Shown one piece after another: positions 1,283-62,558 of a stretch of DNA of 64,000 bases (position 1 is its first letter; the number at the start of each line of letters is the position of its first letter). This DNA is from an uncultured Candidatus Saccharibacteria bacterium. GTDB taxonomy: Bacteria > Patescibacteriota > Minisyncoccia > UBA6257 > JAKLIH01. The stretch is taken from assembly GCA_964618955.1 (NCBI GenBank), contig CAZUBO010000002.1:1582-65581 (forward strand), written 5' to 3'. The notes below the pieces were generated by a model. That model was not told the DNA's origin and searched no databases. It saw only the letters and a list, made by a program, of their open reading frames with translations. Position numbers and translations under genes: made by a program.

Positions 1283-1355
1283 GGGCGTATAGCTCAATTG
1301 GTAGAGCGGCTATCTTATACATAGTTGGTCGTGGGTTCGAATCCTACTACGCCCA
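1283..1355 (+). tRNA. tRNA-Ile, anticodon UAU (reads AUA)
   Basis: Hand-folded cloverleaf: acceptor GGGCGTA/TACGCCC, D arm GCTC..GAGC, anticodon stem GCTAT/ATAGT, loop CTTATAC (U33, anticodon TAT, A37), T arm GTGGG-TTCGAAT-CCTAC. No encoded CCA. Confidence 0.85.
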
Positions 1356-1399
1356 CAGAATATTGATAAAATCAAAAAAATATGTTAAATTAGATGTAT

Positions 1400-7526: not shown

Positions 7527-9605
7527 ATGTTAAAAAACAAATTGTTAAAAATATTGAATTCTCCTTGATTTATTAGTGCTGTAATTCTAATATTAATTTA
7601 TATATTTTTATTTGCGCAAATACCTTGGAATTTAATTTTTAGAGATACTATGGTTTCTGGTGGGGATACTGGATCACATAATTATATAGTATATAAACTA
7701 AAGAGTATTTTTCCAGTTATAAAGACCTGAACTCATGATTGATATGGTGGTTTTCCTTTTTTGTATTTCTATCCACCGTTAATGTTTGTTATTTCAGTTT
7801 TGTTAAGCTTCTTTATGAAGCTAAATGTTGCTTTTAAAATAACAACATTATTAGGTACTCTACTAATGCCAATATGTGTGTATTTAGGGTTGAAGTTCTT
7901 GGGGTATAAAAAGCACATACCCGAGATTGGAGCGGTAGGCTCAATATTGTTTTTGTTTTTAGAAATCTTTAATATCTATGGAGGAAATATACCTAGCACT
8001 TTAGCCGGGGAATTCTCTTATTCATTCTCCTTTGCATTATTCTTCTTGTTTATTGGACTATTATCTAAGGGAGTTGATGAAAACAAATACATATTACCAA
8101 ATGTTATAATACTAGCTTGTATGGCTTTAGCTCATCCTTTTCCAGTTATTAGCGCTAGTATTTATGGTGGATTACTAATATTCTTGAGAAAAGATTGAAA
8201 AAAGAGACTAGTATATATTATGAAAGTATTTTTGATGGCTTTTTGTATTACAGCTTTTTGATCAATTCCTTTTTTGTATTATAAATCATATACCAGTATG
8301 ATGAATTGATACCAAACCATAAAGATTGAAGAGATTCTACCAAGATTCTTAGTGGTATTTCAATTTGGAGCATTATTGGGAATTTTCTTTAGTATCAAAG
8401 AAAAAAGTTCAAAGATATTTAATTTCTTAATTATTGGAATTCCAAATTTTGTTTTGTTCATGCTGATAAACAATTCGCCAATTTACAATACTCGATTTTT
8501 ACCTTTTGTGATTATGAGCTATGTATTATTAGGGGCAGTGGGATTAGGGGAGGTGTTGAATGAATTGTTCTCAAGAAAAAAAATTATTCATGCTATAGCA
8601 GTTATTATTTTCTTAGCTTGAATACTATCAGCTATTAATCCAAAGATGATTTTGGGGAAGAATACTAAAAAAGAATCTTTGATTAAATATATTCCAATGT
8701 GAATGGAATGAAATTACAAAGGTTTTGAAGATAAAGAGCTTTATAGAATTAATGCTTTACCATTATTTGAGTATTTAAAAAACCTTCCTTATGGAAAAAT
8801 GATGTGAGAATATCGACCTGAGTATGATACTTTTGGAACACCAAGATTTTTAGAGAATTTACCAGTACTAACTAACAAACCAACTTTTGAGGGATTACTG
8901 ATTGAATCATCAATCTTTGGACCTTTTCATTTTATAAATCAAACAGAGACTACTCAAAGTCCAACTTCAGCTATTGCTGGATTTGAATATCCACCATTTG
9001 ATTTTGTAAAAGGGGTTGAGCATTTGAAATTATCTAATGCTAGATATTTTGTAGCTTATACTGATAATATTAAATTATTGGCTAGCCAAAATATGAAGTG
9101 ATTAAAAGATATTGGGACGTTTTCAGTATATGAAATACCTAAAAATAATGTTGTCGATATCTTTAGCGATTTTAAAGTTCAAGCCAAGAAAAAAGATTGA
9201 ATTAAAACTTCAATTAATTGGTACAAGAATGGTAATTTAAAAGAACCAATTGTTTTTTATTCCAATAAGTTACAAAAGGATTTGTTAAGTAAGGTTGACG
9301 ATTCAAAGACTGATAATACCGTTGAAATATTAAATTTAACTGATGCAGAAATTACCTTTAAGACTAGGGATTTGAATAAATTACATATGATCAAAGTATC
9401 ATACTTCCCAACTTGAAAAGTGAAGGGGGGCGATGGGCCATTCTTAATGTCGCCATCATTCATCGGAGTAATTCCTAGGCAGAATATTGTTAGTATTAAA
9501 TTTGGCAATGGATTAGTGGATAATATTGCTTATCTATTGACTTATACGGCTATTGCAATTGTGATTATAAAGATAATAAGGCCGAAGAGTATTAAGTTTA
9601 TATAA
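7527..9605 (+). CDS. Large polytopic membrane protein (692 aa), GT-C-like / 6-pyruvoyl-tetrahydropterin-synthase-related membrane protein family
   Basis: ATG is 1 nt after the GT2 stop. ORFs 7761, 8352 and 9420 are all in the same frame. I hand-translated the gaps and found only TGA. N-terminal GGDTGSHNY motif, many TM helices, soluble C-terminal part, final TM anchor. Confidence 0.7.
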
Positions 9606-9670: not shown

Positions 9671-10933
9671 ATGGGAGGACAAAAAGACAAACCAAAAGGA
9701 TTTGACAATCAACAGCCAAATCAACCTAAGAAAGAAGAGCAAAAAGGAAATGTTTCTTTTTCTAGTATACAAAATGAATTAAAAAAAGAATTGGAAATGG
9801 CGGTTGGCAAAGATGAAACTAAAATTTTAAAAAGAGTTATAGACAAAGTAACTATTATCCAACAAAAAACAGAAAACTTAAAAGAAGAATTATTACATGA
9901 CTTTGACAAGGTATTTACGAGTTTTGAAGATCCTTTTGATTTTTTATTGCAACTAGACCAAAAAGATTTAAAAGCCATAAATAAAGGTAAGATGATGGGG
10001 CAGATCGTTGGCTTGATATTAAAGGATCCAGCTATAAAAAATTATCTAGCCATGCAGTCTTCTAATAAAGGAGAGACATTGCGTGTAGAAAAGTTAAAAG
10101 AGATAGCTAATAGCACTGAGGATAAAAAATTAAAAAGTGATATTGAAAAGTTCTTAAAAGGAAAAGAAGATTTAAAAGATCCTAATAGCGAACATTATAA
10201 TACGATATTAGAAAAATTAAAAGGTATAATTGAGAATATACGAAATGAGCTTAAAAAACATATAAATATAGAATCTATATTCCAAGCTCAACCGGATTTA
10301 AAACAAAAATTAGCTTATGAGATACGCTCAAAGCTAAGTAAAGGAGTAACGATTGAGGATTATGAAGATGATGCTATAGGGGGAGAAGAGGTAGAGGTAG
10401 ATGAATATAGCAAGAACTACCCAGTAATACAAGATTTCTATAGAAATCATTTAACTCATGATAAAATTAATAAGCCAATAATACTAGATAATCAAGAATA
10501 CGATGCTTTATTGTCAGAAATGACGACTTTCTTTAATGAACAAAACGAAAGTGAATATCCAAATTTAAAATTATTTTTCGATGGTTTCTTAAAAATTAAA
10601 AAAACAACTGAAGAAGTTATAGAAGAACCAATACAAGAAAATAATGAAAATACTGGTTCAGAAGATAAAGAGGGAGAGAATAAAAAAGAAGAAAAACCAG
10701 AAAAAGATACTTCAGGTCTTATTTATGGTTGTTTAGCTTCCCTTGGAATGCAAGGCATGGATTTAGGTTTTAAAATATTAATGACTATGATTTTCAGTCC
10801 CGTTAGTGCTGCTATATGAGCCTCCCAAGAAAGATTAAAAATGGGAAAAGGTGGTATGAACATTAACACTAAAGGATGAGAAGATATTTTTCCAGGATCA
10901 GCATTGGATCCAGATAAAGATAAGAAGAAATAA
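9671..10933 (+). CDS. Hypothetical charged/coiled protein with C-terminal membrane segment (420 aa)
   Basis: ORF 9671..10819 continues through TGA to TAA at 10931. Lys/Glu-rich with a hydrophobic C-terminal region. No recognisable family. Confidence 0.6.
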
Positions 10934-30217: not shown

Positions 30218-31240
30218 ATGGATGTTTTGTATTATCTAAATGTATTTTGAAATAACAATATTGTTCAAGGTTTGATGGCAATCTTGGGAGCTATTGTTTT
30301 AGCTTTTGTAATTGATTATTTAATTTGATTCTATGTTAAGAAGTTTACAACTAGAACCCATACTCATATTGATGATTTCTTAGTGAATGTTTTAACAACA
30401 CCAATACATTGGATAATTATAATCTTAGGAGCCAAGAAAGCTTTTTTGAAGATCTTTAATATTGTATTAACAAAGAATGTTGACCTATACTATCGTATTG
30501 CGATTATAGTTTTAATAGCTTATGTGATATCTAGATTATTATCATTCTTTATTGGCCATTGATTAAAGGTTCAAAAGCAAACTAAAAAAATACCACAATA
30601 CATTAGTAATATAGTAGGAGTGGTTGTATTTTTAATTGCTTTGATGGTTGTAATGACAATGCTGAAGATATCTATAGCTCCATTACTAACCAGTTTTGGT
30701 ATTGCTGGAGTTTTGATTGGTTTATCATTACAAAATACCTTGGTGAATTTTATTGCTGGATTGAAGATAATATCAGAAGAGAAGATTAAAATTGGAGATT
30801 TTATTGATGATGGCGTTAGTATTAAAGGCGTAGTAGAAGATATGAGTTTGAATTCAACTAAAATAAGAAATTTGAATAATAATATCATTATTGTTCCTAA
30901 TTCAAAGATATCAGATAATCCAATAACTAATTATTCTAGGAATGATAGCAAGATTAGAGTAGTAGTTCCTATAACCTTGGTTATTGATAAGCCTTTAGTC
31001 GAGATGAAGAAGAAGTTAAATTCAATTGTTTTAGAAGTATTTGAAAGCATGGAAGGGATTGATAAGAAGCATGTTCCAGAAGTTTGAATAATCAATGCTG
31101 GACAAGCTAGTTCTATGACTCAGCCAACAGCTACTTTTAATGTCTTAATTACAGTAGTAAGTTACAAATATCAATTTGGAGTAGCTGATGCGATATTAGA
31201 GAAGGTTAGTAAAACATTTTGAAAGTATCAACATGAATAA
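30218..31240 (+). CDS. Small-conductance mechanosensitive channel (MscS family)
   Basis: N-terminal TM helices, pore helix LLTSFGIAGVLIGLSLQNTLVNFIAG, beta domain GDFI..G.V.D. Restored through TGAs from ATG 30218. Overlaps the next gene by 8 nt. Confidence 0.85.
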
Positions 31241-32474
31241 ATTCAAACAAAGTTTTACATTAGTAGAATTAATGATAGTAATAGCAATCTTAGCAATATT
31301 ATCTGCTATTGTAATTTTTGCATTAAACCCAGCCAGACTCTTTGATAACTTTAGAGATTCAAAAAGAGTAACTGATATATCTAGTATTAACAAAGCTATT
31401 GTATTCATGGAATCTTGAAATCAATCAGGTATTACCTATGGTACTACAACTAATGTATATATCTCTCTACCTGATTCAAGTTCTACTTGTAGCTCTTACA
31501 CACTTCCAACTCTTCCTACTGGATATACATATTACTGTTCTAATGCTACAAACTACAAGAATACTGATGGAACTGGTTGAATACCTATCAACTTTACAGT
31601 AGAAGGATCTAATAGATATCTATCAAGTCTACCAGTAGATCCAGTCAATAACAATTCTTTCTTCTATACCTACTATTCAGGAGGATCATATGAATTAACT
31701 GCAATACTAGCTAATCCCAATAAGAACTCTATTGATGACGAAGGAAGTCTTACATCAACCTTTGAGATTGGTAGTCCTAACCGAACATGGAATACACCGC
31801 TACAGAGGGATAAAGGATTGGTACTATACTACAATTTCAATGAAGCAAGTGGCAATGCGCAAGATATGTCGGGGAATGGATATACAGGAACTCTTAACGG
31901 GCCGGTCAGACAAACATTAGTTGGAACTGATCAATCGATGTATTACGATGCCAGTTCCTCAGATTATATCTCAACTCCTAGTTTTGCAATTCCTAATACG
32001 GGGATATTGACGATAGAGGCGTGGATGAAGAGTGTGGGTGCGGATAAGTATCAGTTTATATTAAGTGATGCATCTTATAATGAAATGTCTGGTTTTATAT
32101 ATATGGATAGACCAGTTAATACTAATAGTCTTTTGTATCTGTATGCCAACGGAACAGTATCGGCAGAGTCTTTGTTTACTAACTTCTTTCAAAGTTTAGA
32201 CAATCAATGACTCCATATAGTTATAGTTTGTGATTATACAAATAAAATAGGAAAAGCGTATAGAAATGGGGTTCAATTTGGAACTACTCAAAATCTTACT
32301 GGTGTGCCCGTATTTCCTTCGGTTGGTAGAGTTAAATATATTGGCGCATATAGTAGTGGCGCTTATAAAATCACCGATGGTTCTCTTGATGAAGTAAGAA
32401 TATATAATAGGGGATTGAGTGCGGAGGAGATATCAGCCCAGTATACCTCGACAAAAGGCCATTATGGCTACTAA
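31233..32474 (+). CDS. Type IV pilin-like protein fused to a LamG/concanavalin-A-type lectin domain, paralog 1 (413 aa)
   Basis: N-terminus KQS-FTLVELMIVIAILAILSAIV (prepilin-type methylation motif with E5). C-terminal LamG signature DGSLDEVRIYNRGLSAEEI. Three in-frame TGAs. I hand-translated it end to end. Confidence 0.85.
31247..32474 (+). repeat. Pilin-lectin repeat unit, copy 1 (most divergent)
   Basis: Aligns by eye, nucleotide for nucleotide, with 35779.. and 40777.. over the first 750 bp or so, and again over the last 100 bp or so. Confidence 0.85.
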
Positions 32475-35770: not shown

Positions 35771-37009
35771 ATGCAAAAACAAAGTTTTACATTAGTAGAA
35801 TTAATGATAGTAATAGCAATCTTAGCAATATTATCAGCTATTGTAATTTTTGCATTAAACCCAGCCAGACTCTTTGATAACTTTAGAGATTCTAAGAGAG
35901 TAACTGATATATCTAGTATTAACAAAGCTATTGTATTCATGGAATCTTGAAATCAATCAGGTATTACTTATGGTACAACAACAAACGTATATATATCTCT
36001 TCCTGATTCAAGTTCTACTTGTAGTTCTTATTCATTACCAACTCTTCCTACTGGATACAATTATTACTGTAGTAATCCTACAACGTATAAGAATACTGAT
36101 GGTACTGGCTGAATACCTATCAACTTTACGGTTGAAGGATCCAATAGATATCTATCAAGTTTACCTATTGATCCAGTCAATAATTCTTCTTTTTTTTATA
36201 CCTACTATTCAGGAGGATCCTATGAATTAACTGCCATACTATCTAATCCCAATAAGAACTCCATTAATGATGAAGGAAGTCTTACATCAACCTTTGAGAT
36301 TGGTAGTCCTAATAGAACATTTAATACTCCACTACAAAGAGATAAAGGATTAGTATTATACTATGACTTCAACGAAGTATCTGGTAATGCCCAAGATCAT
36401 TCAGGGAATGGATATACAGGAACTCTTAATGGACCAGTTAGACAGACATTAGTTGGAACTGATCAAGCAATGTACTACGATGCCAGTTCCTCAGATTATA
36501 TTTCAACTCCTTCTTTTGCAATACCTGATACTGGAGTACTTACAATAGAAGTGTGAATGAAGAGCAAACTTGATACTACACATCATCAAACAATATTAGG
36601 CGATGCTAATCAAAACTCATCAATTAGTTATCTTTTTTTTATTAGATACGCGAATACAAATGTTTTATATTATGAATATGCTAATGGAACAGTTATAGGC
36701 ACTGTTAATTTTGCTAATTTTTTTCAAAACTTAGATGATCAATGAATCCATATAGTAGTAATTTGTGATTATTCAAATAAAACATTAAAAGCATATAGAA
36801 ATGGAATTCAGTTTGGAACTACACAAAATCTTTCGGGAACCCCACAATTTCCGTCAATTAACAGAGTAAAATATATTGGTACTTGATCGGGCTCTTCGCA
36901 TAAACTAACTGATGGCTCCCTTGACGAAGTAAGAATATATAATAGAGGGTTGAGTGCCGAAGAGATAGCGGCCCAGTATACAAATACAAAATCTCACTAT
37001 GGACAATAG
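35771..37009 (+). CDS. Type IV pilin-like / LamG lectin fusion protein, paralog 2 (412 aa)
   Basis: Same architecture as 31233. QKQS-FTLVELMIVIAILAILSAIV ... DGSLDEVRIYNRGLSAEEI. In-frame TGAs include the one in the WMKS motif. TAG stop at 37007. Confidence 0.85.
35779..37009 (+). repeat. Pilin-lectin repeat unit, copy 2
   Basis: Near-identical to copy 3 over about 750 bp, including a 233-bp block (36245..36477) that I found identical base for base to 41242..41474. Confidence 0.9.
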
Positions 37010-40767: not shown

Positions 40768-42006
40768 ATGCAAAAGAAAAGTTTCACATTAGTAGAATTA
40801 ATGATAGTAATAGCAATCTTAGCAATATTATCAGCTATTGTAATTTTTGCATTAAACCCAGCCAGACTCTTTGATAACTTTAGAGATAGTAGAAGAGTAA
40901 CTGATATATCTAGTATTAACAAAGCTATTGTCTTCATGGAATCTTGAAATCAATCAGGTATTACTTATGGTACATCAACAAACGTGTATATCTCTCTTCC
41001 TGATTCAAGTTCAACTTGTTCAACATATTCATTACCAACTCTTCCTACTGGATACAATTATTACTGTAGTAGTCCTACAACATATAAGAATACTGACGGT
41101 ACTGGCTGAATACCTATCAACTTTACAGTTGTTGGATCCAATAGATATCTATCAAGTCTTCCTATTGATCCAGTCAATAACAATTCTTTCTTCTATACCT
41201 ACTATTCAGGAGGATCCTATGAATTAACTGCCATCCTTTCAAATCCCAATAAGAACTCCATTAATGATGAAGGAAGTCTTACATCAACCTTTGAGATTGG
41301 TAGTCCTAATAGAACATTTAATACTCCACTACAAAGAGATAAAGGATTAGTATTATACTATGACTTCAACGAAGTATCTGGTAATGCCCAAGATCATTCA
41401 GGGAATGGATATACAGGAACTCTTAATGGACCAGTTAGACAGACATTAGTTGGAACTGATCAAGCAATGTACTATGATGCTTCTGCCAGCGACTATATCT
41501 CAACTCCTTCTTTTGCAATACCTGATACAGGAATACTGACGGTAGAGGCGTGGATGAAGAGTAAAATACAAGCTTCCATTTATCAATCAATAATAAGTGA
41601 TTATAATGAAAATCCTACAATAGGTTTTTTATGAATATTTAGAGCTATAAATTCAGATAACATTGTTATAGAATATTCCAATGGTACTATAAGCACTTCT
41701 ACGGGTTATTCCAATTTTTTTCAAAATCTTGATAACCAATGGATCCATATAGTAATAGTTTCTGATTATACCACTAAAACAATGAAAGCATATAGAAATG
41801 GAGTTCAATTTGGGAATACTATAAGTCTTACGGGTATTCCACAATTTCCCTCAACCAACAAGGCAAAATTTATGGGATCTTATGATCTTACAAGACACAA
41901 ACTCACCGACGGTTCCCTTGATGAAGTAAGAATATATAATAGAGGGTTGAGTGCGGAGGAGATAAGTGCTCAATATACAAATACAAAGTCTCGCTACGGA
42001 CAATAA
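40768..42006 (+). CDS. Type IV pilin-like / LamG lectin fusion protein, paralog 3 (412 aa)
   Basis: QKKS-FTLVELMIVIAILAILSAIV ... DGSLDEVRIYNRGLSAEEI. ORF 41782..42006 is its C-terminus. TAA stop. Confidence 0.85.
40777..42006 (+). repeat. Pilin-lectin repeat unit, copy 3
   Basis: See copy 2. Diverges from copy 2 mainly between about 41555 and 41735. Confidence 0.9.
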
Positions 42007-48877: not shown

Positions 48878-50086
48878 ATGTTCTACTATTGATACCTAAA
48901 TGTATATGCCTATTATAGCAAATTAATTGCCAGAACACAAAGATTTTTGAAGCCAGTAATTAGGTTAGTGGTTTTTGCATTTAAGAAGATTACCAGTAAA
49001 GTTGAATGAGAGTTGATAGGAGCTTATTGCTATAAAAAATGCAAGACCAATACTAATACGATTGCTTTGGTAGTGTTCTTTGTTTTTGCTATTAATGTTG
49101 CTATGATGTTAAATGGGATATCAAATATTTCTTTTTCGAATTTGTTTGCTGATACAAATATTATTGTAGAAGCAATGGATTTACAAGATCCAGTTAGTAC
49201 TCATGAGACGGTTTCGATAAATGATATTAATCTAGATAGCTATGACTACTATCAGAATCTAAATATGGAAGCTAAACCAGAAGACTTCTTAGATCTATAC
49301 TTAGTGGAAGATGAAGCCTTTTTGTTACGTAGTATTGATTTTTCAGAATCAAATATTGATATTTCAAAACCAGATAGAATTATATCGTATGTTGTAAAGC
49401 AGGGAGATACTTTAGAGAAGATTGCTAAGAATTTTGGAATTAATGTAGAAACTTTAAAGACAGCTAATTCTTTGAAAAAATCAGTGATTGCTCCAGGACA
49501 GAAGTTAGTGATTCTTCCAATATCAGGTATTTACTATACTGTTAAGAAGGGGGATAGCTTAGGGAAGTTAGCAATCAAATACAAAATCTCAGCTAGTGTA
49601 ATTCGAGAATACAATAATTTAGAAAATGATACTTTAAAAATTAATGAGAAAATTATCTTACCAGGGGCTAAGGAACAAATAATTGCAAATGTTACTAAGA
49701 GTGGTACAAAAATAACTGAAGTAGGTGGAAGTGGATTCTTCCTATATCCAACAGTAGGATGGAATTGAGGTGAAGCTCATGGAGTAGGTGGTTGTGCAGT
49801 TGATATTGCTAATACCTGTGGCACACCAATCTACGCTAGTGCTGATGGTACAGTAATTGATTTACGAACTAGTGGATACAATTCCGGATATGGACTATAT
49901 ATCAAAATACAACATAACAATGGAACTTCAACATTATATGCTCATTTAAGTCAAATACTAATTACTAATGGCCAATACGTAAGTAGGGGCCAGATGATCG
50001 GGAAGATGGGAACTACTGGTAAATCAACTGGATGTCACTTACACTTTGAAGTGAAGGGTGTAAAAAATCCATTTATTAAAAAATAG
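48878..50086 (+). CDS. Membrane-anchored LysM (x2) + M23 (lysostaphin-type) peptidoglycan endopeptidase
   Basis: Two LysM repeats (YVVKQGDTLEKIAKNFG, YTVKKGDSLGKLAIKY). M23 motifs H-x3-D context (AVDIAN) and HLHFEV after one TGA. The start is uncertain (48878 ATG or a downstream start). Confidence 0.82.
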
Positions 50087-50098
50087 TAAAAATTTACT

Positions 50099-52378
50099 AT
50101 GTCTAAAAAAATAGCCAAAAAAATTCTTTTGATAATTCTTCTGGGTTTTATGATATTAGGAGGAGTTAGCGCTCCAGGAGTGAATTTCAAAGCTCCTAAA
50201 GCTGAAGCTTCTATTTTCAATTGAGTAGCACCTAAAAAAACAGCTGAAACTCCAGTAAAAGGAGACGATGGTACGAAAAAGAATTCTTGTAATACTTGTT
50301 TTGTGGCTGTTAAGACTGGCACAATATGAAATATGTTATCCGCTCCGATTGATACAGTCTTATCGCTTATACCTAGAATTTTAGTATTTGTAATAAAGTG
50401 AATTGTGATTCTTTTGGCAAAACTTTTACAAGCATTAATGGCTCCTCAAGGAGGCGGATTATTCTTTAAATTAAATCAGTTCATGCCAACTTACAATGAA
50501 GCAGGGCAACAAACTAGTTTTATATATTGACTTTGAAGTGTATCGCTTTATTACGCCAATATATTAATAACGTTATTTTTAATTTGAATTGCTATTAATA
50601 TTATTTTGGAGAAAAAAGAATATACCAATTACCAAAATTTAATTAAATTGGTAGGAGTTGCTTTATTAGTTAATTTCTCCTTAGTAATATGTGCGGTATT
50701 TGTAGATATATCTAATTTTATAGCAACTTTATTTATGTCAAATATCGCTATGAATTCTTTTTCTTGTATGTATGCTTGTACTATCCATAAAGTGGCAAAT
50801 ATTTTTAATTGTAAACAAGATAATATGATATTTTCTTTGACAATTTCTAATAGCTTAGCATTAATGGTTGGATTGGTATTTGTTGGACAAATATTAGGAT
50901 TGATTATGTATGTACTTACTCGTATGGTTTATTTATGATTTTTGGTTGGCATATCACCAATTGCTTTTGTATTATCAGCTATACCAGAAACAAGAAAATA
51001 TTACAAACAATGATCTGATTTGTTTATAGCTAATTTGACTAAATTACCAGCATTAGCATTTGCTTCATATTTTATTTTAAATATGATGATCTATATTTCA
51101 AATAATTATATGATGAGTACTGATACTGCTAATACAAATTGAATGCAAAACATATTGGGAATGGGAAATAACACAGCTAGCGAGAATCTTTGAATTTCAA
51201 CTTTAGGAATTGTTTTTATATTATTTATATTATCACAAGCTTTATTAATGGTGGCTCAAAACTTAGGAGTAGAACAGATTTCCAAAGCTTCAGCATTTGC
51301 AACAGGCTGAGCTAAAAAAGGGTGAGATGCAGTGAAGAATCCTACTATGAGCTATGGAAGAAAGAAATTACTTAGTTCGAAGCCAATGCAAAGTTTTACA
51401 AAGACTCTTACTGGCAGTAAAATAGCTCCTCTAACAAGGCTTGGAAACAAAGTCGCTGATCAAATGACTAGGGAACAAAAGAAATCTCAAGGCGAAATTA
51501 ATTACTGAAAAGAAAACTTGAATGCTGGTATGCTTGAGAGAATTGTTAATGACAACAAGAGCGCACGAGGAGATAAAACAAAATTCTTACAAGCCATCCA
51601 AGCCTTGTCAGAAATGCAATCAAAGGGTGATTATAAAGATCCTGGGGTTGGGAAAAATAAGATTAAAATTTTGGATAATCCAGAGAATATGAGTATGGTA
51701 AAGAATTTGGTAGCTGACGATTTATATGGAGAGACTGATGCGGGCAAATTCATGAAGAAGCGTTATACTTGAGTGAAGGCTGGTCCAAAATCAGAAGATT
51801 ATAAGTCTGCAGCCGAAAAGATCTTGGGAACTGGTGCATCTGAAGCTGCTCTTAATAAGAAAATGGAAGAGTTGGCCTTTAGCGCCCCATATTATGATGC
51901 CGCTAGTTTTAAGGGTGGTAAACTAAGAGATGAGCTCTATGGAAGAGCTACTGACCAAGACAAAGCCGGTCTAAATGATTGACACGCCGAAATCAAACAT
52001 CTTTTTGATGCTAGTAAAACTAACCCTGATCCTGAAAAATTTGCCGAAATGTTTCAATTATTTCAAAAAACAATTAGCGCCAAAAAGATGCAATTGATTT
52101 TTAACAAACTACCTAATGTTCAAAGAGCAACATTTTGAGATATGATTGCCAGAATGGCTATAGTAGCGAAGAAAGTTAAGGATAAAAAGCTTGGAAGCAA
52201 TAACCTAGATGCTGAATTCACAAATATAAAACCTGACGAAATATACAATGATGCCGAAGACGCATTGAGCGAATTGGCTGGTGGACAACAATACAGCTGA
52301 ATGGCTACTCCTAAAAACGCGGACTCCCTTTCTTTTGCTAGATCTTTGCGAGATAATGATTTTATAAAGTTAAAATAA
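50099..52378 (+). CDS. VirB6/TrbL-like polytopic membrane protein with long soluble C-terminal extension (759 aa)
   Basis: Signal/anchor, then at least 6 hydrophobic helices rich in TGA-encoded Trp, then about 350 aa of hydrophilic sequence. The assignment rests on topology and on its position directly upstream of VirB3/VirB4 homologs. Confidence 0.5.
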
Positions 52379-52387
52379 AATAACTAT

Positions 52388-53383
52388 ATGATTGTTAATG
52401 CTTTTGAGATATATGATTATTTGCCAGAAAAAATAAAAGAATTATTGTTTAGCCAATTTATGGATAATTTAATGGCAAATATTTTTGCATTAGCAAACAT
52501 CCCAGAAGAAAAACAGATTTCTTTACATCGCGACACAGTTGGAGTGCTGATAGGTAGGCATGATTTAAAACAGTATGAAAATATTTTAAAGACAAATTAT
52601 GGATTAAATGACAACGTAACAGCTACAACAATAGCTCTATTAAACGAGAAATTATTTAACCAAATAACTGATGCTTTAGAAAAATCTAAAGAAGTTTATA
52701 AACGATTTAGTGAAGGCAATATAAAAAACCTATCTAATTCAGTAATATCTGAAACAAAAAATGAGTTCAAAGAACCTGAAAAAATAATGTCTTACATCCA
52801 AGAACTGGCCGAATCAATTAAAAAAGAAGATACTTTACCAGAAGCAAATTTAGAAATTATTCCGACAATTGCTGATATGAAAATTATACCGGAAGAAAAG
52901 AAAATTACTATAAATACGCCGGTTTTAAAACCAGAAGAAGCAAAAGTTGAACCAGTAGTTATCAAGAATGAAGCTGTTGCTGAAGAACCGGTTAAGGAAG
53001 TTGCTCCTGAAGTAAAGCCAGTTGAAGAAGTTCCGGCTTTTGTTCCCAAAGAATCAACGGTGTTTAAGATGATGAAGAATAAAGAAGAACAGAGTAATGG
53101 AAAATTAAATGAATACTTTAAAGCCTTGAAAGATAATTTGGATTTTGGTAATACCAACGAATCAGAGAATATATTCCAACCACCATTCAAGGCCACAAAG
53201 GGAAGGAGTATGATGGTAGAGTCTAGTATCGAAGAATCCAAGGATAATATTGTTGTAAACGAGAGTATTGAACCCAAGAAAAAACCTGTCAGATACAATA
53301 GCTTTGAATTTATGAAGAAGCCAAATACTCCTAGTGAAGCCAAATCAGCTGATGATAAGTTTATTGATTTGGGAGATTTTTAA
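52388..53383 (+). CDS. Hypothetical protein with Pro/Glu/Val-rich linker (331 aa)
   Basis: Uninterrupted ORF. Helical N-domain, PEEAKVEPVVIKNEAVAEEPVKEVAPEVKPVEEVP low-complexity linker, acidic C-terminus. Family unknown. Confidence 0.6.
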   Translation: MIVNAFEIYDYLPEKIKELLFSQFMDNLMANIFALANIPEEKQISLHRDTVGVLIGRHDLKQYENILKTNYGLNDNVTATTIALLNEKLFNQITDALEKSKEVYKRFSEGNIKNLSNSVISETKNEFKEPEKIMSYIQELAESIKKEDTLPEANLEIIPTIADMKIIPEEKKITINTPVLKPEEAKVEPVVIKNEAVAEEPVKEVAPEVKPVEEVPAFVPKESTVFKMMKNKEEQSNGKLNEYFKALKDNLDFGNTNESENIFQPPFKATKGRSMMVESSIEESKDNIVVNESIEPKKKPVRYNSFEFMKKPNTPSEAKSADDKFIDLGDF

Positions 53384-53447
53384 ATCAATTTTTATTGATA
53401 ATTTTTTGGTTTTATGTTACATTATATCTAATAACTAATTTAATATT

Positions 53448-53855
53448 ATGGATGATTATCAAGTACCACAATTCATTGAAGACGAAGCTAGATTAGTAGG
53501 ACCATTCTCCTTTGTCCAGATTTTTATATTAGTTGGTGGTTGTGGTTCAGCCTTGATAGTTTACAAATTATTAAAAGGCTTTTTGGGAATACCAATTGCA
53601 GTAGTATTATTATTCTTAACAGCAATGTTGACTTTTACAAAGTTCAACGATATGCCATTATACAAAATGGTAATTCCAATGATAAAGCATTTTGTATTAC
53701 CAAAATCATACCAATGATCTCAACCTAAAGGGGTAGTTACTAAAAATGAGAATATTAAAACTAAGACTGATTTTGATTTTAAGAATGTTGAGAGCAAGAC
53801 AGATATGAATGCAGTTGATGAATTAACTAAAATATTAGACAAAGGCAATGAATAA
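53448..53855 (+). CDS. PrgI-family / VirB3-like small membrane protein
   Basis: YQVPQFIEDEARLVGPFSFVQ N-terminal motif followed by two TM helices. One TGA. Overlaps the next gene by 8 nt. Confidence 0.65.
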
Positions 53856-54528
53856 AAACAATACTACAAATAATTCAAGTACTCAGAATTTAATGCCAAT
53901 TAATGAAATTCGCAATAATACCGTTATCTTAAAGAATGGTTCTTTAAGATCTATTATTGAAGTTGATGGTATTAATATTGATTTGATGTCAAATGAAGAT
54001 CAGGAGAATACATTAAGAACCTGACAATCATTTTTGAATAATTTGGATTTTTCAGTTCAAATATTAATTGTCTCTAGAAAGGCAAATATTGATGAGTATG
54101 TTAGTAATGTTGAGAGTAAGACTGCTGAAGTTGAAGAAGACTTGCTAAAGACTCAGGTAAACGACTATGTGACTTTTATACGAGACTTTACAGCTAATAA
54201 TCAAATTATTGATAAGAAGTACTATATTATAGTTCCTTATGATCCTTTCATAATGAAGAAGAGTGCTTTTGGGGGACAAATTAAAGATATGTTTTTGAGT
54301 ATTTTTAATTTGAATCGCGAAGCTTTTTCTCAGGATGTATTATTAGATGATAAGGAATTTCAAAAGAATTATCAGCAATTGATTGTTCGACAAGATACAA
54401 TTCTTTCACAATTACAAAGAATGGGGTTATCAGCTCAGTTAGTTCAGACTAATGATATTATTCCTTTGATACATAATATCTACAATCCGGATACAATATT
54501 AAAACCAACATCAACAAAAGAATTTTAA
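53848..54528 (+). CDS. VirB4 N-terminal-domain-like protein (stand-alone, 226 aa)
   Basis: NLMPINEIRNNTVILKNGSLRSIIEVDGINIDLMSNEDQE..FLNNLDFSVQILIVSRKANIDEYV matches the N-terminal module of Gram-positive VirB4/TrsE/PrgJ ATPases. Genuine TAA stop at 54526. Confidence 0.6.
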
Positions 54529-54538
54529 AAAAACAAAT

Positions 54539-56323
54539 ATGTCTATTTTTTCTTCAAAAAAACAAGATAGTGAGACTGATAAGTTGATTAATGATAGTCG
54601 TTCAGGCTATGCTAAAGCCGTAGCTTCTTTACGAGATATCATTTCTCCTTCAGGATTGGTAGTGAATACAACTTCCTTAAAATTAGGAGGAACTTTTGTA
54701 AGGACTTTGTTTATTCTAACTTATCCAAGATATTTAAGCCCAGGGTGATTCTCTTCGATTATCAATTTTGATTCCGCTACAAACTTATCAATATTTTATC
54801 ATCCAATTGATAATTCAAGTATTCTAAGACAGTTACGAAAGAAGTTGGGAGATGTTGGTGCTCAAATACAGTTAGAAGCTGAGAAAGGAGCCCCAAGGAA
54901 TCCAGCTTTGGAAACCGCTATAGAAGATATTGAGAATTTAAGGCAAGCAATAGTTCAGGGAACGGAAAAGATGTTTAGAGTTTCCGTATATATTACTATC
55001 ATGGCTAATTCTGAAAAAGAATTAAATGATACTGAGAATAAGATCAATAGCTTCTTAGAGAGTAAATTAATTTATCCAAAGCCAGCTCACTTTAGACATT
55101 TTGAAGGTTATGAATGTACGGTTCCAGTATGTTTGGATCGCTTAGGTTATGGGACATTATTGAATTCTACTCCAGCTTCAACTTTGTTTCCTTTCATATC
55201 GGCGAATTTAACACAAAATACAGGTATTATGTATGGTATTAATTTAATTAATAACAGCTTAGTTATCTTTGATAGATTTAGTTTAGAGAATGCTAATATG
55301 TGTGTATTCGGAACTTCGGGTAGTGGTAAGAGTTATGCTGTAAAGACTCATGCAATTCGAGAATTAATGATGGGATCAGATATTTTAATTATTGATCCAG
55401 AGAATGAATACGAATACTTAGCTAAAGCTGTTGGTGGAGAGAGCTATAAAATAGCTGTAGCTTCTAAGGACCATATCAATCCTTTTGATTTACCAATCAT
55501 TACGAGTGACGAAACTGTTGGGGAAGTATTTAGAAGCCATATTTTGAATTTGATTGGATTGATTAAGATTTTGTTAGGAGGATTAAGTCCTATGGAAGAG
55601 GTTACAATAGATCAAGCAATTACTTTGACTTATGCTTCAAGAAATATCAATCCAGAAGCTGATACTGCTAATGAGAATATGCCAGTACTAGAAGACTTGG
55701 TGAATGTTTTAAATACTATGGAAGGTGGAGCAAACTTAGCAGCTAAGCTATATAAATACACCAAGGGAACTTACGGAGAATTTTTAAATCATCCTACAAA
55801 TATTAATATTAATAACAAATTTGTTGTTTTTAATATTAATGATTTAGAAGAAGAGTTACGACCTATAGCTATGTATATTTTATTAAACTATGTTTGAAAT
55901 AGCGTTAAGAAAGTTATGAAGAGAAGAATTCTAATTATAGAAGAAGCTTGATTATTAATGAAGTTCAAAGAGAGTGCTAACTTTATGTTGAGCTTTGCTA
56001 AGAGAGCTAGAAAATATTACTTGGGATTAACTACAATTACCCAAGACTTAGATGACTTTTTGAAGTCACCTCAAGGTATTCCAATAATTACAAATTCAAG
56101 TATTAAATTGTTATTCAAACAATCAACTGCTACAATAAAGCAATTGACTGAGACTTTACAATTAACTGAAGTAGAGAAGAATTTATTAACCCAGATAGAG
56201 ATTGGTTCGGGGTTATTCTTAGCAGGGGACAAACATACTTTAATTCAAGTAGTAGCTTCGTATACTGAAGATCAGTTAATTACTTCAGATCCCGAAAGAC
56301 TGATGGCTTTAAAAAACCAATAA
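54539..56323 (+). CDS. VirB4-family type IV secretion ATPase (central + C-terminal ATPase domains, 594 aa)
   Basis: YPRYLSPG-W-FSSII, Walker A GTSGSGKS, IIDPENEY, Walker B-like ILIIEEA-W, TTITQDLDDF. Three fragments are in one frame, joined by TGA. Confidence 0.85.
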
Positions 56324-56333
56324 GAATTAAATT

Positions 56334-57137
56334 ATGCCAGCACCTTTAATTGCTGCCGGAGCAAAAGTAGTAGCGGGTAATATTGCCAAAAGAGAGGCTG
56401 CGAAACAAGCAGCTAAGATGGCTGCCAAAGCTGCTGCTAAAAAAACAGCTGAAGGGGTTGCTAAAAAGACGGCCGAGAAAGTTGGATCTCAAGCTGTTAA
56501 AAGTGGAGTAAAGAATATTCCAATTAAAAGACCTCCTAACAAATTTACACAAGGTTTTAGACAAGCAAATGATATATCGGATAAAGTTCAACAAGCTCAG
56601 AACATATCAAATACTGGAAATGCAAAAGAAGAAGAGAAACAAAAAGAACCTGCTCAAAAAACAACTTTTCTAAATAGAGTTTTAAATCAAAATACCAATA
56701 AAGAAAATGCAACTAATAAGTTTGATTATCGAAAAACATTTAGTGATAAAGGCCAAGTTGATAATGAGAATTCTCAACCTGTCAAAAAACAAGATAAGGG
56801 ATGATATAACGCAGCTATGTTTATGGCTATATGAAAGGATGCTGTTGAGATAGGATTGAATTTAATTGCTTTGGGTTGATTAGGTCCGATACTTAGTTTT
56901 TTACCGACAATTGTGCTAACATTTATATTGTTTATGTCAGGAAAGAAAAGCACTATAAAGATTGTATCTTATTTCTTAGTATTAGTACTAGACTTATTAC
57001 TACCAGGATTTAATGCCTTGCCAGTTACTGTGATTGCTACTTTCATTGTATTCCATATTAAACCAGAAGCCATAAAAGGTTTAGACAAGAATAATGCAAA
57101 TAAAGGGATCGAAATTATTAAAAAGTTTATAAAATAA
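56334..57137 (+). CDS. Hypothetical protein: Ala/Lys-rich N-terminus + multi-TM C-terminus (267 aa)
   Basis: AAGAKVVAGNIAKREAAKQAAKMAAKAAAKKTAEGVAKKTAEK, then a polar linker, then 3-4 TM helices restored through three TGAs. Confidence 0.55.
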
Positions 57138-57141
57138 ATAT

Positions 57142-58212
57142 ATGGTAAAATCTAAATACAAAAAAATTCTATTAGTTTTGGTCATTTTGTTCTTGACGAT
57201 ATCTAACATTACTCGAGTATATGCTCAAGTCAACACAATGACTACCGATCCAAATGTTATAAAACAAGAACTTAAAGCTGAAGGTGTTGGATATATATTC
57301 CAAGTTGGTATTCCTGGTATAGTAGGAGCTAATGCAAAGCTACCGATTACCGGATTGGGTACATTAGTAAACGGTATTATCACCTTGGCTTATAGAATTG
57401 CCATGTTACTTGTTTTATATAAAATAGTAAGCATTGGTTTTAAATATATGACTAGTAAGGGAAACGCCGACATAGTTAGCAGCGTTTCTAAAGGAATGAA
57501 AAATGTTCTAATTGGAATTTTAATTTTATTTGGATCTTATTTAATCTTAAGAACTATTAATCCAGATTTAACAAAAATACCGCAAAATATAAACTGCCCA
57601 AAGGGCACAGCTATTTGTGATGACGCCACTGGTTCTAATTATACTCAAAATAAAGTAGCTTGTCCTTTGCCAGGAGGCACTGTTAGCGTAGACAATCGCA
57701 CAGCTGATGAATTAGAAAATGACATGGGGATAGGGTCTGATAAGTCAATGTTTGACGATGGAATTACAGAAGATGAAGTTAATAAGTTTATTTCATCAAA
57801 TTATGGATCTTTGTATCAAAGTGGTGATTGAACAAATGCTAAAAAAGATTTGTTGTCAGGAAAAGTATCTACTAATATTTGATCAGCAATTAAAAAATTA
57901 ATTGAAAATAAAAATAATTGATTAAGCCCAGATTGTTGAGATAAGATAGAGTTTGGTCCAATCTATACGGGGCATGTAAAAGCAGGAGACTATGAATCGT
58001 GTCATGACTCATATGATGCAGTTGATTTAGTCGTTAGAGATGGTCTTGGAAATCATGACAGAGATGCTGCTAAAGCTTGCATGGAAGATGCTTTAACATA
58101 TCTAAGAGCATATGTATCCGAAGTTACGGCTTGCGACGAAAGAGAATGTCCGCCACCTCATATTCATATACAAGACGTTAATTGTAAGGTTGGATGTAGA
58201 GTTTGTCCTTAA
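57142..58212 (+). CDS. VirB2/TrbC-like pilin module fused to a Cys-rich domain with LAS-type zinc-peptidase-like motifs (356 aa)
   Basis: Signal peptide ending VYAQ. Two hydrophobic helices separated by KYMTSKGNADIVSSVSKGMKN (VirB2-like hairpin). C-terminal domain with about 12 Cys, SCHDSYDAVD (H-x6-D) and PPHIHIQD (H-x-H). Four in-frame TGAs. Confidence 0.5.
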
Positions 58213-58224
58213 GATAATACAATC

Positions 58225-58255
58225 AAAAACCTCCGAAGTAATTCGGAGGTTTTTT
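58225..58255. terminator. Strong bidirectional terminator closing the T4SS-like operon (overlaps the jag stop)
   Basis: aaaaacctccgaa gtaa ttcggaggttttt. Confidence 0.8.
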
Positions 58256-60864: not shown

Positions 60865-61157
60865 TATATATTATCATATTTTATAAAAAAATGCAATAGT
60901 AAAGGTATTAAAATATACTCTGATAGAAGGGCATAGGATTTTTTGTTTTTTATCTTTTCTCCATCTATAGAACTAAAGGTTGTCAATAATGCTACGGTTT
61001 TTATACTAATTTGCCAGTTCTAAAATCACAATAATTCTTATCCCCACCTTTTCCACAGAAAGACGATAAAAAAGGCGTTATTGTATTGAAAATTTTTGAA
61101 AAAGCAGTTATACTATTATTACTAATTGACTTGCAGAAAAATACTAAACTGATTCTT

Positions 61158-62558
61158 ATGAATGCAGATGAATTGAAAAAATTATGAAAAGACGTAATGT
61201 CAGAAATAGAACTAAATATTTCTAGAGCAAATTTTGTTACTTGATTTAAGAATAGTGCTATTATCGATAAGAATAAAGATACGGTAACCGTAGCTACTAA
61301 TTCTAATTTTGCTAAAGAATGATTAGAGAATAGATACAATAAATATATTAAGAAGGCTTTAGAGAAGTTAGCTCCGGAAATTAAGAATGTAATATATAAA
61401 GTAGAATCAATTGAGAATATTCAGAAATTCCAAACAGCAATTGAAGAAGGAAAGAAGACTGAAGTAGTAAAAGTTAAAAAGCCAGCTGAGCAAACTGATT
61501 CTTTAACTAAGATTGCTCAAGATCCAAATACTAATTTAAATTCAAAATATACTTTTGATAATTTAGTAGTTGGTTCTCACAATGAATTAGCTCATGCAGC
61601 AGCTTTAGCGGTATTAGATAATTTAGGTTCCAAATACAATCCTTTGTTTATTTATGGAGGAGTTGGATTAGGGAAGACTCATTTAATGCAAGCTTTAGGA
61701 AATGCTTTTAGACAGAGTAACAAAAAATTAAATATCTGATATATCAATACTGAGAAATTAGTTAATGATATTATTGGATCTATTCGTGAACAAACAATTG
61801 ATACAGTAAAGAAGCAATACAAAAAGTTAGATATATTATTGATTGATGATATTCAATTCTTAGCTAATAAAGAAAAGACTCAGGAAGAAGTATTCCATAT
61901 CTTTAATACTCTGTATGATGCTAACAAACAAATTGTCTTTACGTCTGACCGACCACCAAAGGCAATACCAGGATTAGAAGAGAGATTACGATCACGGTTT
62001 GAAGGTGGAATGGTAGCTGATATTAGTCTACCTAATTACGAGACTAGAGTCGCAATATTGAAGAATAAACTACGAGAGAAGAAGACGAATTTACCAGATG
62101 AAATTATTGACTATATTGCTCAGAATATTACTAATAACGTTAGAGAATTAGAAGGGGCTTTAAATACGTTATTAATTAACTTTGAAGTTAAGAAGATTAC
62201 TCCAAGTATTGAATTATCAAAGAAGTTGTTAGAAGATTTTATTAAGAAGCCAAAGAAGATGGTGACGCCTAATGATGTTTTAAAGTTAGTATCAGCTTTC
62301 TATGATATTTCAGTTGATAAGATCAAAGGGGAATCACGAAGGAAAGACTTGGTAAAGGCAAGACAAATTACTATGTATATCTTACGAGATGTTGTGAAGT
62401 TATCTTATCCAGCTATTGGAGAAGTTTTTAATCACAAAGACCATACAACAGTAATGCATTCATGTAAGAAGATTGAAGACGAGAAATTAAAGGATAGTGT
62501 ATTAAATCAAGAGTTAGAATCGATAATTGAAAAGTTGAATTATGATGTGTTTAACTAG
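61158..62558 (+). CDS. dnaA: Chromosomal replication initiator DnaA
   Basis: The N-terminus has three TGAs (61185, 61242, 61320) exactly where E. coli and B. subtilis DnaA have Trp. Walker [20 protein letters not shown], box VII/VIII, C-terminal DNA-binding HTTV motif. Confidence 0.95.

Follow-up and report, generated by a model that had tools for sequence, protein, structure and literature searches.

A type IV secretion pilin-like protein joined to a predicted hedgehog/DD-peptidase-like domain in an origin-proximal operon of a UGA = Trp Patescibacteria bacterium

Introduction

A 64-kb stretch of contig CAZUBO010000002.1 (hereafter the window, to which all coordinates refer unless another locus is named) carries, in the chromosomal origin region, the operon of a type IV secretion system (T4SS). 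Gene g8, the last of this operon, encodes a pilin-like N-terminal part that is joined to a Cys-rich C-terminal domain (C-domain) with a predicted hedgehog/DD-peptidase (LAS) fold. In this study, we examine the reading frame of g8, the relationships of its two parts and the organization of its operon, and we weigh what a pilin-like protein bearing a putative cell wall peptidase may do.

Patescibacteria possess a Gram-positive-type T4SS with VirB2-like pilins; its genes often lie close to dnaA, are usually not accompanied by a relaxase gene and have M23/LysM hydrolases encoded in the vicinity, and origin-proximal loci that combine such pilins and hydrolases have already been published for this group (PMC12102498). 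Ca. Southlakia epibionticum, the one species tested, cannot grow as an epibiont without its T4SS and the pilins of that system (PMC10633639, PMC11665869). In Gram-positive T4SS, the presumed task of VirB1-like hydrolases is to breach the wall so that the machine can cross it (PMC12102498). Our literature search found no paper describing a pilin joined to a peptidase domain, and the fusion appears to be unreported.

Results

The g8 reading frame and the genetic code

Gene g8 lies at 57142..58212 on the (+) strand and encodes 356 amino acids, with a TAA stop at 58210-58212. Under translation table 11, the open reading frame (ORF) from 57142 stops at 57831 and yields only 229 amino acids; the full-length protein is obtained only if four in-frame TGA codons (57829-31, 57880-82, 57919-21 and 57937-39; span 57829..57939, +) are read as sense, and orthologue alignment assigns these to Trp. 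When ORFs were re-called with TAA and TAG as the sole stops, long, recognisable genes were obtained throughout the window, with TGA frequent in frame and TGG almost absent; for example, the ORF at 7527-9605 has 13 TGA codons and that at 50099-52378 has 17. Compared with orthologous loci, the TGA codons of the window stand opposite TGA 230 times, opposite TGG (Trp) 77 times and opposite Gly codons 0 times, and the TGA positions of g8 itself carry TGG in the relatives L002 and L003. From this correspondence of TGA with TGA or TGG, in the orthologous loci and within g8 itself, we conclude that UGA is Trp (code 4) in this genome and across the window. The 229-residue table 11 reading is ruled out by this codon evidence, as is code 25 (UGA = Gly), TGA being never opposite Gly and TGG being nearly absent. 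The 356-residue ORF on which the original prediction was built is thus real, given that its four TGA codons are read as Trp. An identical protein is present in the protein database (P0001).

The first report of UGA as Trp in Patescibacteriota is a preprint of May 2026 (10.64898/2026.05.24.727570), which describes it within the class Minisyncoccia, for family JAKLIH01 and genus GCA-2747955. A tRNA-Trp(UCA) gene was not found in the 64-kb window. The g8 sequence occurs in two sequencing runs, both of DNA, from sludge metagenomes, and the relatives under GTDB are metagenome-assembled genomes (MAGs) labelled Ca. Saccharibacteria or Ca. Paceibacterota. The source is an ultrasmall sludge bacterium, a member of the Patescibacteria (Minisyncoccia/Paceibacteria-like) in which UGA = Trp.

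To the alternative that g8 is an annotation artefact, ending at its first TGA with the downstream domain untranslated or a pseudogene remnant, we give next to no credence: the 229-residue table 11 ORF and several database entries that end exactly at the first TGA (P0005, P0008 and P0009) speak for it, but it is refuted by the genome-wide TGA/TGG pattern, the TGG codons in the g8 of relatives and the orthologue counts, and the downstream frame is moreover conserved with invariant motifs in loci of 28-80% identity, folds confidently in AlphaFold2 (AF2) and belongs to a group of lineages, the Minisyncoccia, for which UGA = Trp had already been reported (10.64898/2026.05.24.727570).

The N-terminal part belongs to a pilin family at the profile level

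The N-terminal part of g8 has the layout of a VirB2-type pilin precursor. A Sec-type signal peptide spans residues 1-28 (MVKSKYKK, hydrophobic core, RVYA|Q; 57142..57225, +), with its probable cleavage site placed from sequence and hydropathy, and is followed by a T4SS pilin-like domain at residues 29-146 (57226..57579, +), delimited by profile searches and hydropathy. Within this domain, helix 1 (residues ~72-100) and helix 2 (~121-141) are separated by a basic loop (101-120) that contains the Lys-rich segment KYMTSKGNADIVSSVSKGMKN, and a conserved TINPDLTK motif comes after helix 2. The full-length AF2 model places the helices at residues 72-104 and 111-139 with low confidence. A signal peptide ending in VYAQ and two hydrophobic helices with a basic loop had been proposed beforehand, and both were borne out by sequence and hydropathy.

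Family assignment depended on relatives rather than on g8 alone. Against the Pfam family PF18895 (T4SS_pilin; gathering cut-off 26.6 bits) g8 scored 12.0 bits (E 0.24), below the cut-off, and close family members scored 11.9-18.8 bits; against TrbC/VirB2 (PF04956; cut-off 27.9 bits) g8 itself gave no match. A profile of residues 1-160 built from 8 sequences nevertheless retrieved 72 proteins from a database of 5.8 billion, with E values down to 1e-26, most of them annotated PF18895 and some named 'pilin' in Patescibacteria MAGs. Ten of these were re-scanned against PF18895; eight scored 28.6-36.7 bits, above the cut-off, and the other two scored 22.5-24.9 bits. Family members also gave repeated, co-linear, sub-threshold matches to PF18895, to TrbC/VirB2 and to a Mycoplasma ICE (integrative and conjugative element) pilin-like NCBIfam model. 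Sub-threshold PF04956 matches were seen for the relative P0009 (E 0.14) and for the more distant P0010 and P0011 (23.1-23.7 bits). No solved structure matched the pilin part by sequence. Because the relatives found with the N-domain profile pass the PF18895 cut-off, though g8 alone does not, residues 1-146 of g8 are placed in the Patescibacteria T4SS pilin family by profile-level homology. The T4SS pilin assignment of the original prediction therefore stands through homology to PF18895 relatives, and not through any match of g8 itself to PF18895 above threshold or to PF04956.

The pilin-like part of g8 resembles other Patescibacteria VirB2-like pilins of the PF18895 family, including the Ca. 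Southlakia epibionticum array, in its signal peptide, two-helix hairpin and short basic loop, and in its position beside virB4, prgI and a virB6-like gene near dnaA. It differs in that the operon has one pilin gene instead of an array, g8 being the sole pilin-like ORF within the window, and in that g8 has a C-terminal extension of ~210 residues ending in an enzyme-like domain. Extensions as such are frequent: C-terminal tails of 40-310 residues, some with 13-21 Cys, occur on other Patescibacteria pilins. The pilins P0033, P0034, P0036 and P0040 have tails of ~110-120 residues with 17-21 Cys and no known domain, and tailed pilins sit in an equivalent KsgA/VirB4/YidC neighbourhood at loci L010 (9001-9714) and L011. 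A pilin with a C-terminal extracellular module is thus common in Patescibacteria, and what is new in g8 is the enzyme-like module.

Layout, distribution and conservation of the C-terminal domain

Beyond the pilin-like part, three segments can be distinguished. A linker (residues 147-200; 57580..57741, +), modelled with low confidence in the full-length AF2 prediction, contains the family-conserved residues C152, C159 and C174. It is followed by a helical subdomain (residues 201-262; 57742..57927, +), defined from the AF2 models, with helices at ~210-219, 228-239, 244-255 and 257-260 and with three of the four UGA-encoded Trp residues (W230, W247 and W260). The remainder is a predicted LAS-type (hedgehog/DD-peptidase-like) core (residues 263-356; 57928..58209, +), delimited by alignment, AF2 and Foldseek, which opens with a strand and a loop bearing H278; a short helix (H288), a strand (D295) and a long helix come next, and then two strands, the first with E333 at its end and the second carrying H340 and H342, before a Cys-rich tail. 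Eleven Cys residues were counted in g8, all beyond residue 150, where about 12 had been claimed.

The putative catalytic residues are carried by four conserved elements. The motif G272-P273-x4-H278 (57955..57975, +) is invariant in the family alignment, and hhalign sets H278 against H133 of the H133-H134 pair of Sonic hedgehog. The motif S286-C287-H288-x4-A293-x-D295 (57997..58026, +), supported by alignment and hhalign, contributes H288 and D295 as predicted zinc ligands. A near-invariant E333 (58138..58140, +), which may have a catalytic role, stands at the end of the penultimate strand, and the motif H340-I-H342-I-Q-D345 (58159..58176, +) has both His invariant in the family alignment. The two ordered motifs named in the original prediction, H-x6-D in SCHDSYDAVD (residues 286-295, H288-x6-D295) and H-x-H in PPHIHIQD (residues 338-345, H340-x-H342), are both present and were found invariant in 13-15 family members. 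The bare order H-x6-D then H-x-H arose in 1.2% of shuffles of the C-terminal part, and the extended order S-x-H-x4-A-x-D then H-x-H in 0 of 20,000.

The family defined by the C-domain (residues ~186-356) is small. An exhaustive HMMER search with a five-sequence profile returned 15 matches among 1.84 billion representative proteins. A match in this search to P0025, a highly repetitive protein of 2,559 amino acids with many weak repeat matches, was judged spurious. A second, word-indexed homologue search with the C-domain profile returned three proteins and nothing new. The C-domain is fused behind the same pilin in every member with enough sequence and in every related locus complete enough to read; apparent stand-alone fragments begin or end at UGA codons or at a scaffold gap. 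All readable loci have in-frame UGA and a GC content of 27-33%. In the most divergent relative, L007, an apparent break at ~9900-10000 makes two genes of the pilin and the peptidase-like part; as it coincides with a stretch of N and a shift of frame, it is probably a scaffolding gap and not a true split.

Among 13-15 aligned C-domain sequences, whose identity drops to 28%, the residues C265, G272, P273, H278, C287, H288, A293, D295, C313, H340, H342 and C348 are invariant, and D236, W260, S286, V297, E333, D345 and C352 are nearly so.

Fold and sequence comparisons of the C-terminal domain

The C-domain alone, modelled by AF2 from 13 sequences, reached a mean predicted local distance difference test (pLDDT) of 91.2 and a predicted template modelling (TM) score of 0.86. 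When this model was compared with the PDB by Foldseek, 39 of the 40 best matches were Hedgehog N-domains or M15-type peptidoglycan peptidases, the latter including the RB49 L-Ala-D-Glu peptidase, LysECD7, VldE, Ply500 and ChiX. Target-normalised TM-scores were 0.37-0.56, probabilities reached 0.84 and the root mean square deviation was ~4 Å over ~110 columns; by TM-score, LysECD7 and ChiX matched at least as well as Hedgehog. The full-length model already had the RB49 peptidase, ChiX and LysECD7 among its best five. In the viral library BFVD, the best match had an E value of 1.4e-3 and a probability of 1.00, and many neighbours were labelled Peptidase M15A, L-alanoyl-D-glutamate peptidase, DD-carboxypeptidase or Sonic hedgehog (Shh); a tape-measure protein was also among them.

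Sequence comparison placed the same motifs together at a level far below significance. Sub-threshold Pfam matches to Peptidase_M15_4, VanY and Peptidase_M15_3 were obtained for a few family members, the best, in one member, having an E value of 0.09. In the hhalign comparison with human Shh-N (a sequence 100% identical to PDB 6E1H chain C; probability 0.3%), G-H278 fell on G-H133, S-C-H288 on S-L-H140 and A-V-D295 on A-V-D147, and with Escherichia coli MepK, alone or in a small MepK-plus-phage alignment, the best local match was again the S-x-H...A-x-D ligand motif. The pattern S-x-H-x4-A-x-D is thus shared with Shh (H140/D147) and with MepK (S131/H133/A138/D140). From our own reading of the two sequences, made with no alignment tool, E333 would pair with Shh E176, and H340 and H342 with H180 and H182. 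For the roles of these Shh residues we assume the zinc site of PDB 1VHH, in which we take E176 to be the proposed general base. On that assumption, all six residues of the hedgehog-type centre appear to have invariant or near-invariant counterparts in the C-domain: H278, H288, D295, E333, H340 and H342 would correspond to H133/H134, H140, D147, E176, H180 and H182.

Because the structural neighbours are consistent and agree with the motifs, the individual match statistics being weak, the assignment of the C-domain to a predicted hedgehog/DD-peptidase (LAS) fold, as a very divergent branch of the hedgehog/M15 superfamily, is supported by modelling. The hedgehog/DD-peptidase claim of the original prediction accordingly holds for the fold neighbours and the invariant residues, and fails for sequence-profile matches, none of which was significant.

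The T4SS operon and the origin neighbourhood

The operon comprises eight co-directional, tightly packed genes (48878-58212, all on the + strand), of which g8 is the last. The first, g1 (48878..50086), encodes a LysM-LysM-Peptidase_M23 cell wall hydrolase (M23 E 1.2e-29; LysM E 4.7e-27), which agrees with the M23 enzyme predicted there. Gene g2 (50099..52378) encodes a 759-residue protein with several hydrophobic stretches that is probably membrane-spanning and is a candidate VirB6/TrbL-like component, its L003 orthologue having a weak TrbL_3 match. In the library scans no family match was found for g3 (52388..53383; 331 residues), nor for g7 (56334..57137; 267 residues), which has a hydrophobic C-terminal part and is probably membrane-spanning. 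Between them lie g4 (53448..53855), encoding a VirB3-like PrgI protein (PF12666, E 1.7e-6), g5 (53848..54528), a TrsD/TraC-like gene of its own that matches the N-terminal part of VirB4 (VirB4_plasma E 2.6e-15; TrsD E 2.2e-10), and g6 (54539..56323), encoding a VirB4-type ATPase (P-loop_TraG E 1.6e-26; AAA_10; DUF87). Related loci show the same division of VirB4 into two genes, here g5 and g6, and so do Gram-positive and Mycoplasma ICE systems. The pilin-peptidase fusion gene g8, its ORF read with UGA = Trp, begins 4 nt after the end of g7 and stands one gene downstream of virB4 in the window and in the metagenomic loci L001, L002, L003 and L007. Neither a coupling protein nor a relaxase was found in the operon, and no Pfam match to an SLT/lysozyme-like or CHAP domain was found in g8 or in the rest of the operon.

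Upstream of the operon lie genes for PNPase and KsgA, and downstream those for Jag, YidC, RnpA, DnaA and DnaN; with dnaA at 61086-62558, the operon falls within the chromosomal origin region. A 13-bp hairpin (58225..58254; AAAAACCTCCGAA-GTAA-TTCGGAGGTTTTT) with T-runs on both strands separates g8 from the convergent jag and probably terminates transcription in both directions. L001, L003 and L007 share the gene order KsgA, operon, Jag-YidC-RnpA-DnaA; in L002, the sequence of which stops short of the upstream end, the side from the pilin to DnaA is preserved.

Two further features of the window were recorded. Three paralogous genes of 412-413 amino acids, ~80% mutually identical (31233-32474, 35771-37009 and 40768-42006, +), have near-identical N-termini that resemble type IV pilins (FTLVELMIVIAILAILSAIVIFALNP...) and may encode variable type IV pilus subunits. 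A tRNA-Ile gene at 1283-1356 (+) has the anticodon TAT, which is probably uncommon in bacteria.

Discussion

The interpretation that we favour, and hold with somewhat better than even confidence, is that g8 would be the single VirB2-type pilin-like subunit of an origin-proximal chromosomal T4SS of the monoderm type, and that it would carry a LAS-type zinc peptidase core for peptidoglycan at the pilin site. A Sec signal peptide would be cleaved after A28, and the two helices would then enter the membrane as a hairpin that leaves the Lys-rich loop on the cytoplasmic side. Because such a hairpin has its basic loop inside, everything beyond residue ~146 would be outside the membrane: the ~55-residue Cys-containing linker, the helical subdomain and the LAS core. 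An outside location fits the many conserved Cys of this part. There, H288, D295 and H342 would bind zinc, H278, E333 and H340 would complete the catalytic centre, and the domain would cut peptide stems or cross-links of peptidoglycan exactly at the location of the pilin. The target may be either the producer's own wall, where the T4SS or its pilus crosses, or the wall of a host at the point of pilus contact, and the LysM-M23 enzyme encoded at the start of the operon would complement the g8 domain. By a rough estimate from published F-pilus dimensions, which speaks to plausibility only, linkers of 55 residues would leave room for a globular domain on each subunit, arranged as a bottle-brush.

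Several observations weigh against this interpretation. The Foldseek E values against the PDB are weak (best 0.059) and the TM-scores borderline, searches of the C-domain against Pfam, NCBIfam, PHROGs and PDB sequences gave nothing significant, and hhalign of the family profile with Shh-N, MepK and the MepK-plus-phage alignment gave probabilities of at most 1%, with agreement at the level of motifs only. The N-terminal half of the full-length AF2 model is poor. The operon already encodes an M23 hydrolase able to serve the producer's own wall, we know of no pilus observed in this lineage, and the g8 sequence is present in DNA runs only (two, from sludge). To our knowledge, Hedgehog N-domains keep the same site and yet their peptidase activity is disputed; therefore, an intact motif in the C-domain does not prove catalysis.

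Comparison with known enzymes and machines places g8 between several classes. With M15-type LAS peptidases (the T5/RB49-type L-Ala-D-Glu peptidases, LysECD7, ChiX, Ply500 and MepK) it shares the predicted fold, the S-x-H-x4-A-x-D and distal His motifs and, if the topology above is right, an extracytoplasmic location; unlike them, its domain has no significant sequence similarity to the class, has many conserved Cys and is fused to a pilin. The third-ligand motif is H-x-H in g8 and in Hedgehog, whereas it is H-x-D in MepK. The Streptomyces albus DD-peptidase also has H-x-H, and M15B/C enzymes have D/E-x-x-H. Like the VirB1-like hydrolases pIP501 TraG and pCF10 PrgK, g8 would be a wall-degrading enzyme encoded within a T4SS operon. 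TraG and PrgK, however, stand as proteins of their own, equipped with lytic transglycosylase/muramidase and CHAP domains, whereas g8 has a LAS-type domain joined to a pilin. A structural subunit of an envelope-crossing assembly is also combined with a peptidoglycan hydrolase in FlgJ and in the lysin-bearing tail or tape-measure proteins of phages, so that cutting takes place only where the structure grows or lands. This is a functional analogy: the structural parts are unrelated, and FlgJ uses a muramidase domain instead of a LAS peptidase.

A bolder version of our interpretation, which we regard as unlikely though worth stating, is that the T4SS pilus of an epibiotic lineage is built of subunits that each carry an active wall peptidase, forming an armed filament that would digest through the host wall at contact.

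Distinctly improbable, in our view, is that the C-domain is a non-catalytic, hedgehog-like binding module, with g8 acting as an adhesin that recognises wall peptide or another host-surface ligand. Its best-ranked structural neighbours are indeed the signalling domains of Hedgehog (Shh, Ihh and Dhh), other Patescibacteria pilins bear non-enzymatic, Cys-rich C-terminal tails resembling surface modules, and the variety of pilins in Patescibacteria has been proposed to serve host recognition (PMC12102498). Yet at identities as low as 28% the six residues of the hedgehog-type centre are still invariant or nearly invariant, which exceeds the usual need of binding alone, and the M15 enzymes LysECD7 and ChiX equal or better Hedgehog by TM-score. 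The g8 domain further differs from Hedgehog N-domains in being bacterial, fused to a pilin and without lipid modification, and in having no significant sequence similarity to them.

We attach a similarly low probability to a second alternative, in which the pilin hairpin would only export and anchor the protein: the peptidase would be released by a cut behind the second transmembrane helix, to act as a free secreted enzyme or effector, and the pilin so trimmed would assemble without it. TrbC and VirB2 pilins of the RP4 and Ti systems are processed at the C-terminus during maturation, and such a cut would parallel that trimming. The strictly conserved TINPDLTK-x-P-x-N-x-N-C stretch after the second helix and the long linker, disordered in the model, would suit it, and a ~19 kDa domain on each pilus subunit would presumably be sterically demanding. 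However, library scans of the operon revealed no dedicated maturation protease such as TraF, and the TINPDL motif also occurs in pilins that lack the C-domain and is therefore not specific to a cleavage event.

Less credible again is a pilus-less system, in which g8 would be a membrane-anchored, VirB1-like, wall-opening hydrolase of a Gram-positive-type T4SS, docked to the translocon by its two-helix domain. Gram-positive-type T4SS classes are generally without pili (PMC12102498, PMC12857230), the VirB4 and TrsD parts of the operon resemble Mycoplasma ICE and Gram-positive systems, and g8 alone falls below the PF18895 cut-off. Against this, the homology of the two-helix domain to the pilin family of Patescibacteria is clear, the same family is indispensable in Ca. 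Southlakia epibionticum, where this is taken as possible evidence for a pilus, and a LysM-M23 hydrolase is already present in the operon.

Returning to g8 as a pilin-like subunit with a wall peptidase core, the fusion has consequences for annotation, for protein families and for the study of these organisms. Standard table 11 annotation cuts g8 at the domain boundary, and UGA = Trp lineages therefore hide such architectures. The C-domain would add to the hedgehog/M15 superfamily a very divergent branch that sequence libraries miss, and the tails discussed above show Patescibacteria pilins to be carriers for varied extracellular modules. The architecture is expected to surprise specialists in T4SS and in the candidate phyla radiation (CPR), the evidence for its fold being predictive. 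Expression and assay of a domain of ~170 residues would not require the organism in culture, and the fusion thus offers a testable handle on the function of the Patescibacteria T4SS. The joining of the sole pilin to a predicted wall peptidase would tie the pilin to the breaching of an envelope; and if the armed filament were true, it would give the first direct mechanistic hint at the reason why epibiotic life depends on T4SS and pilins.

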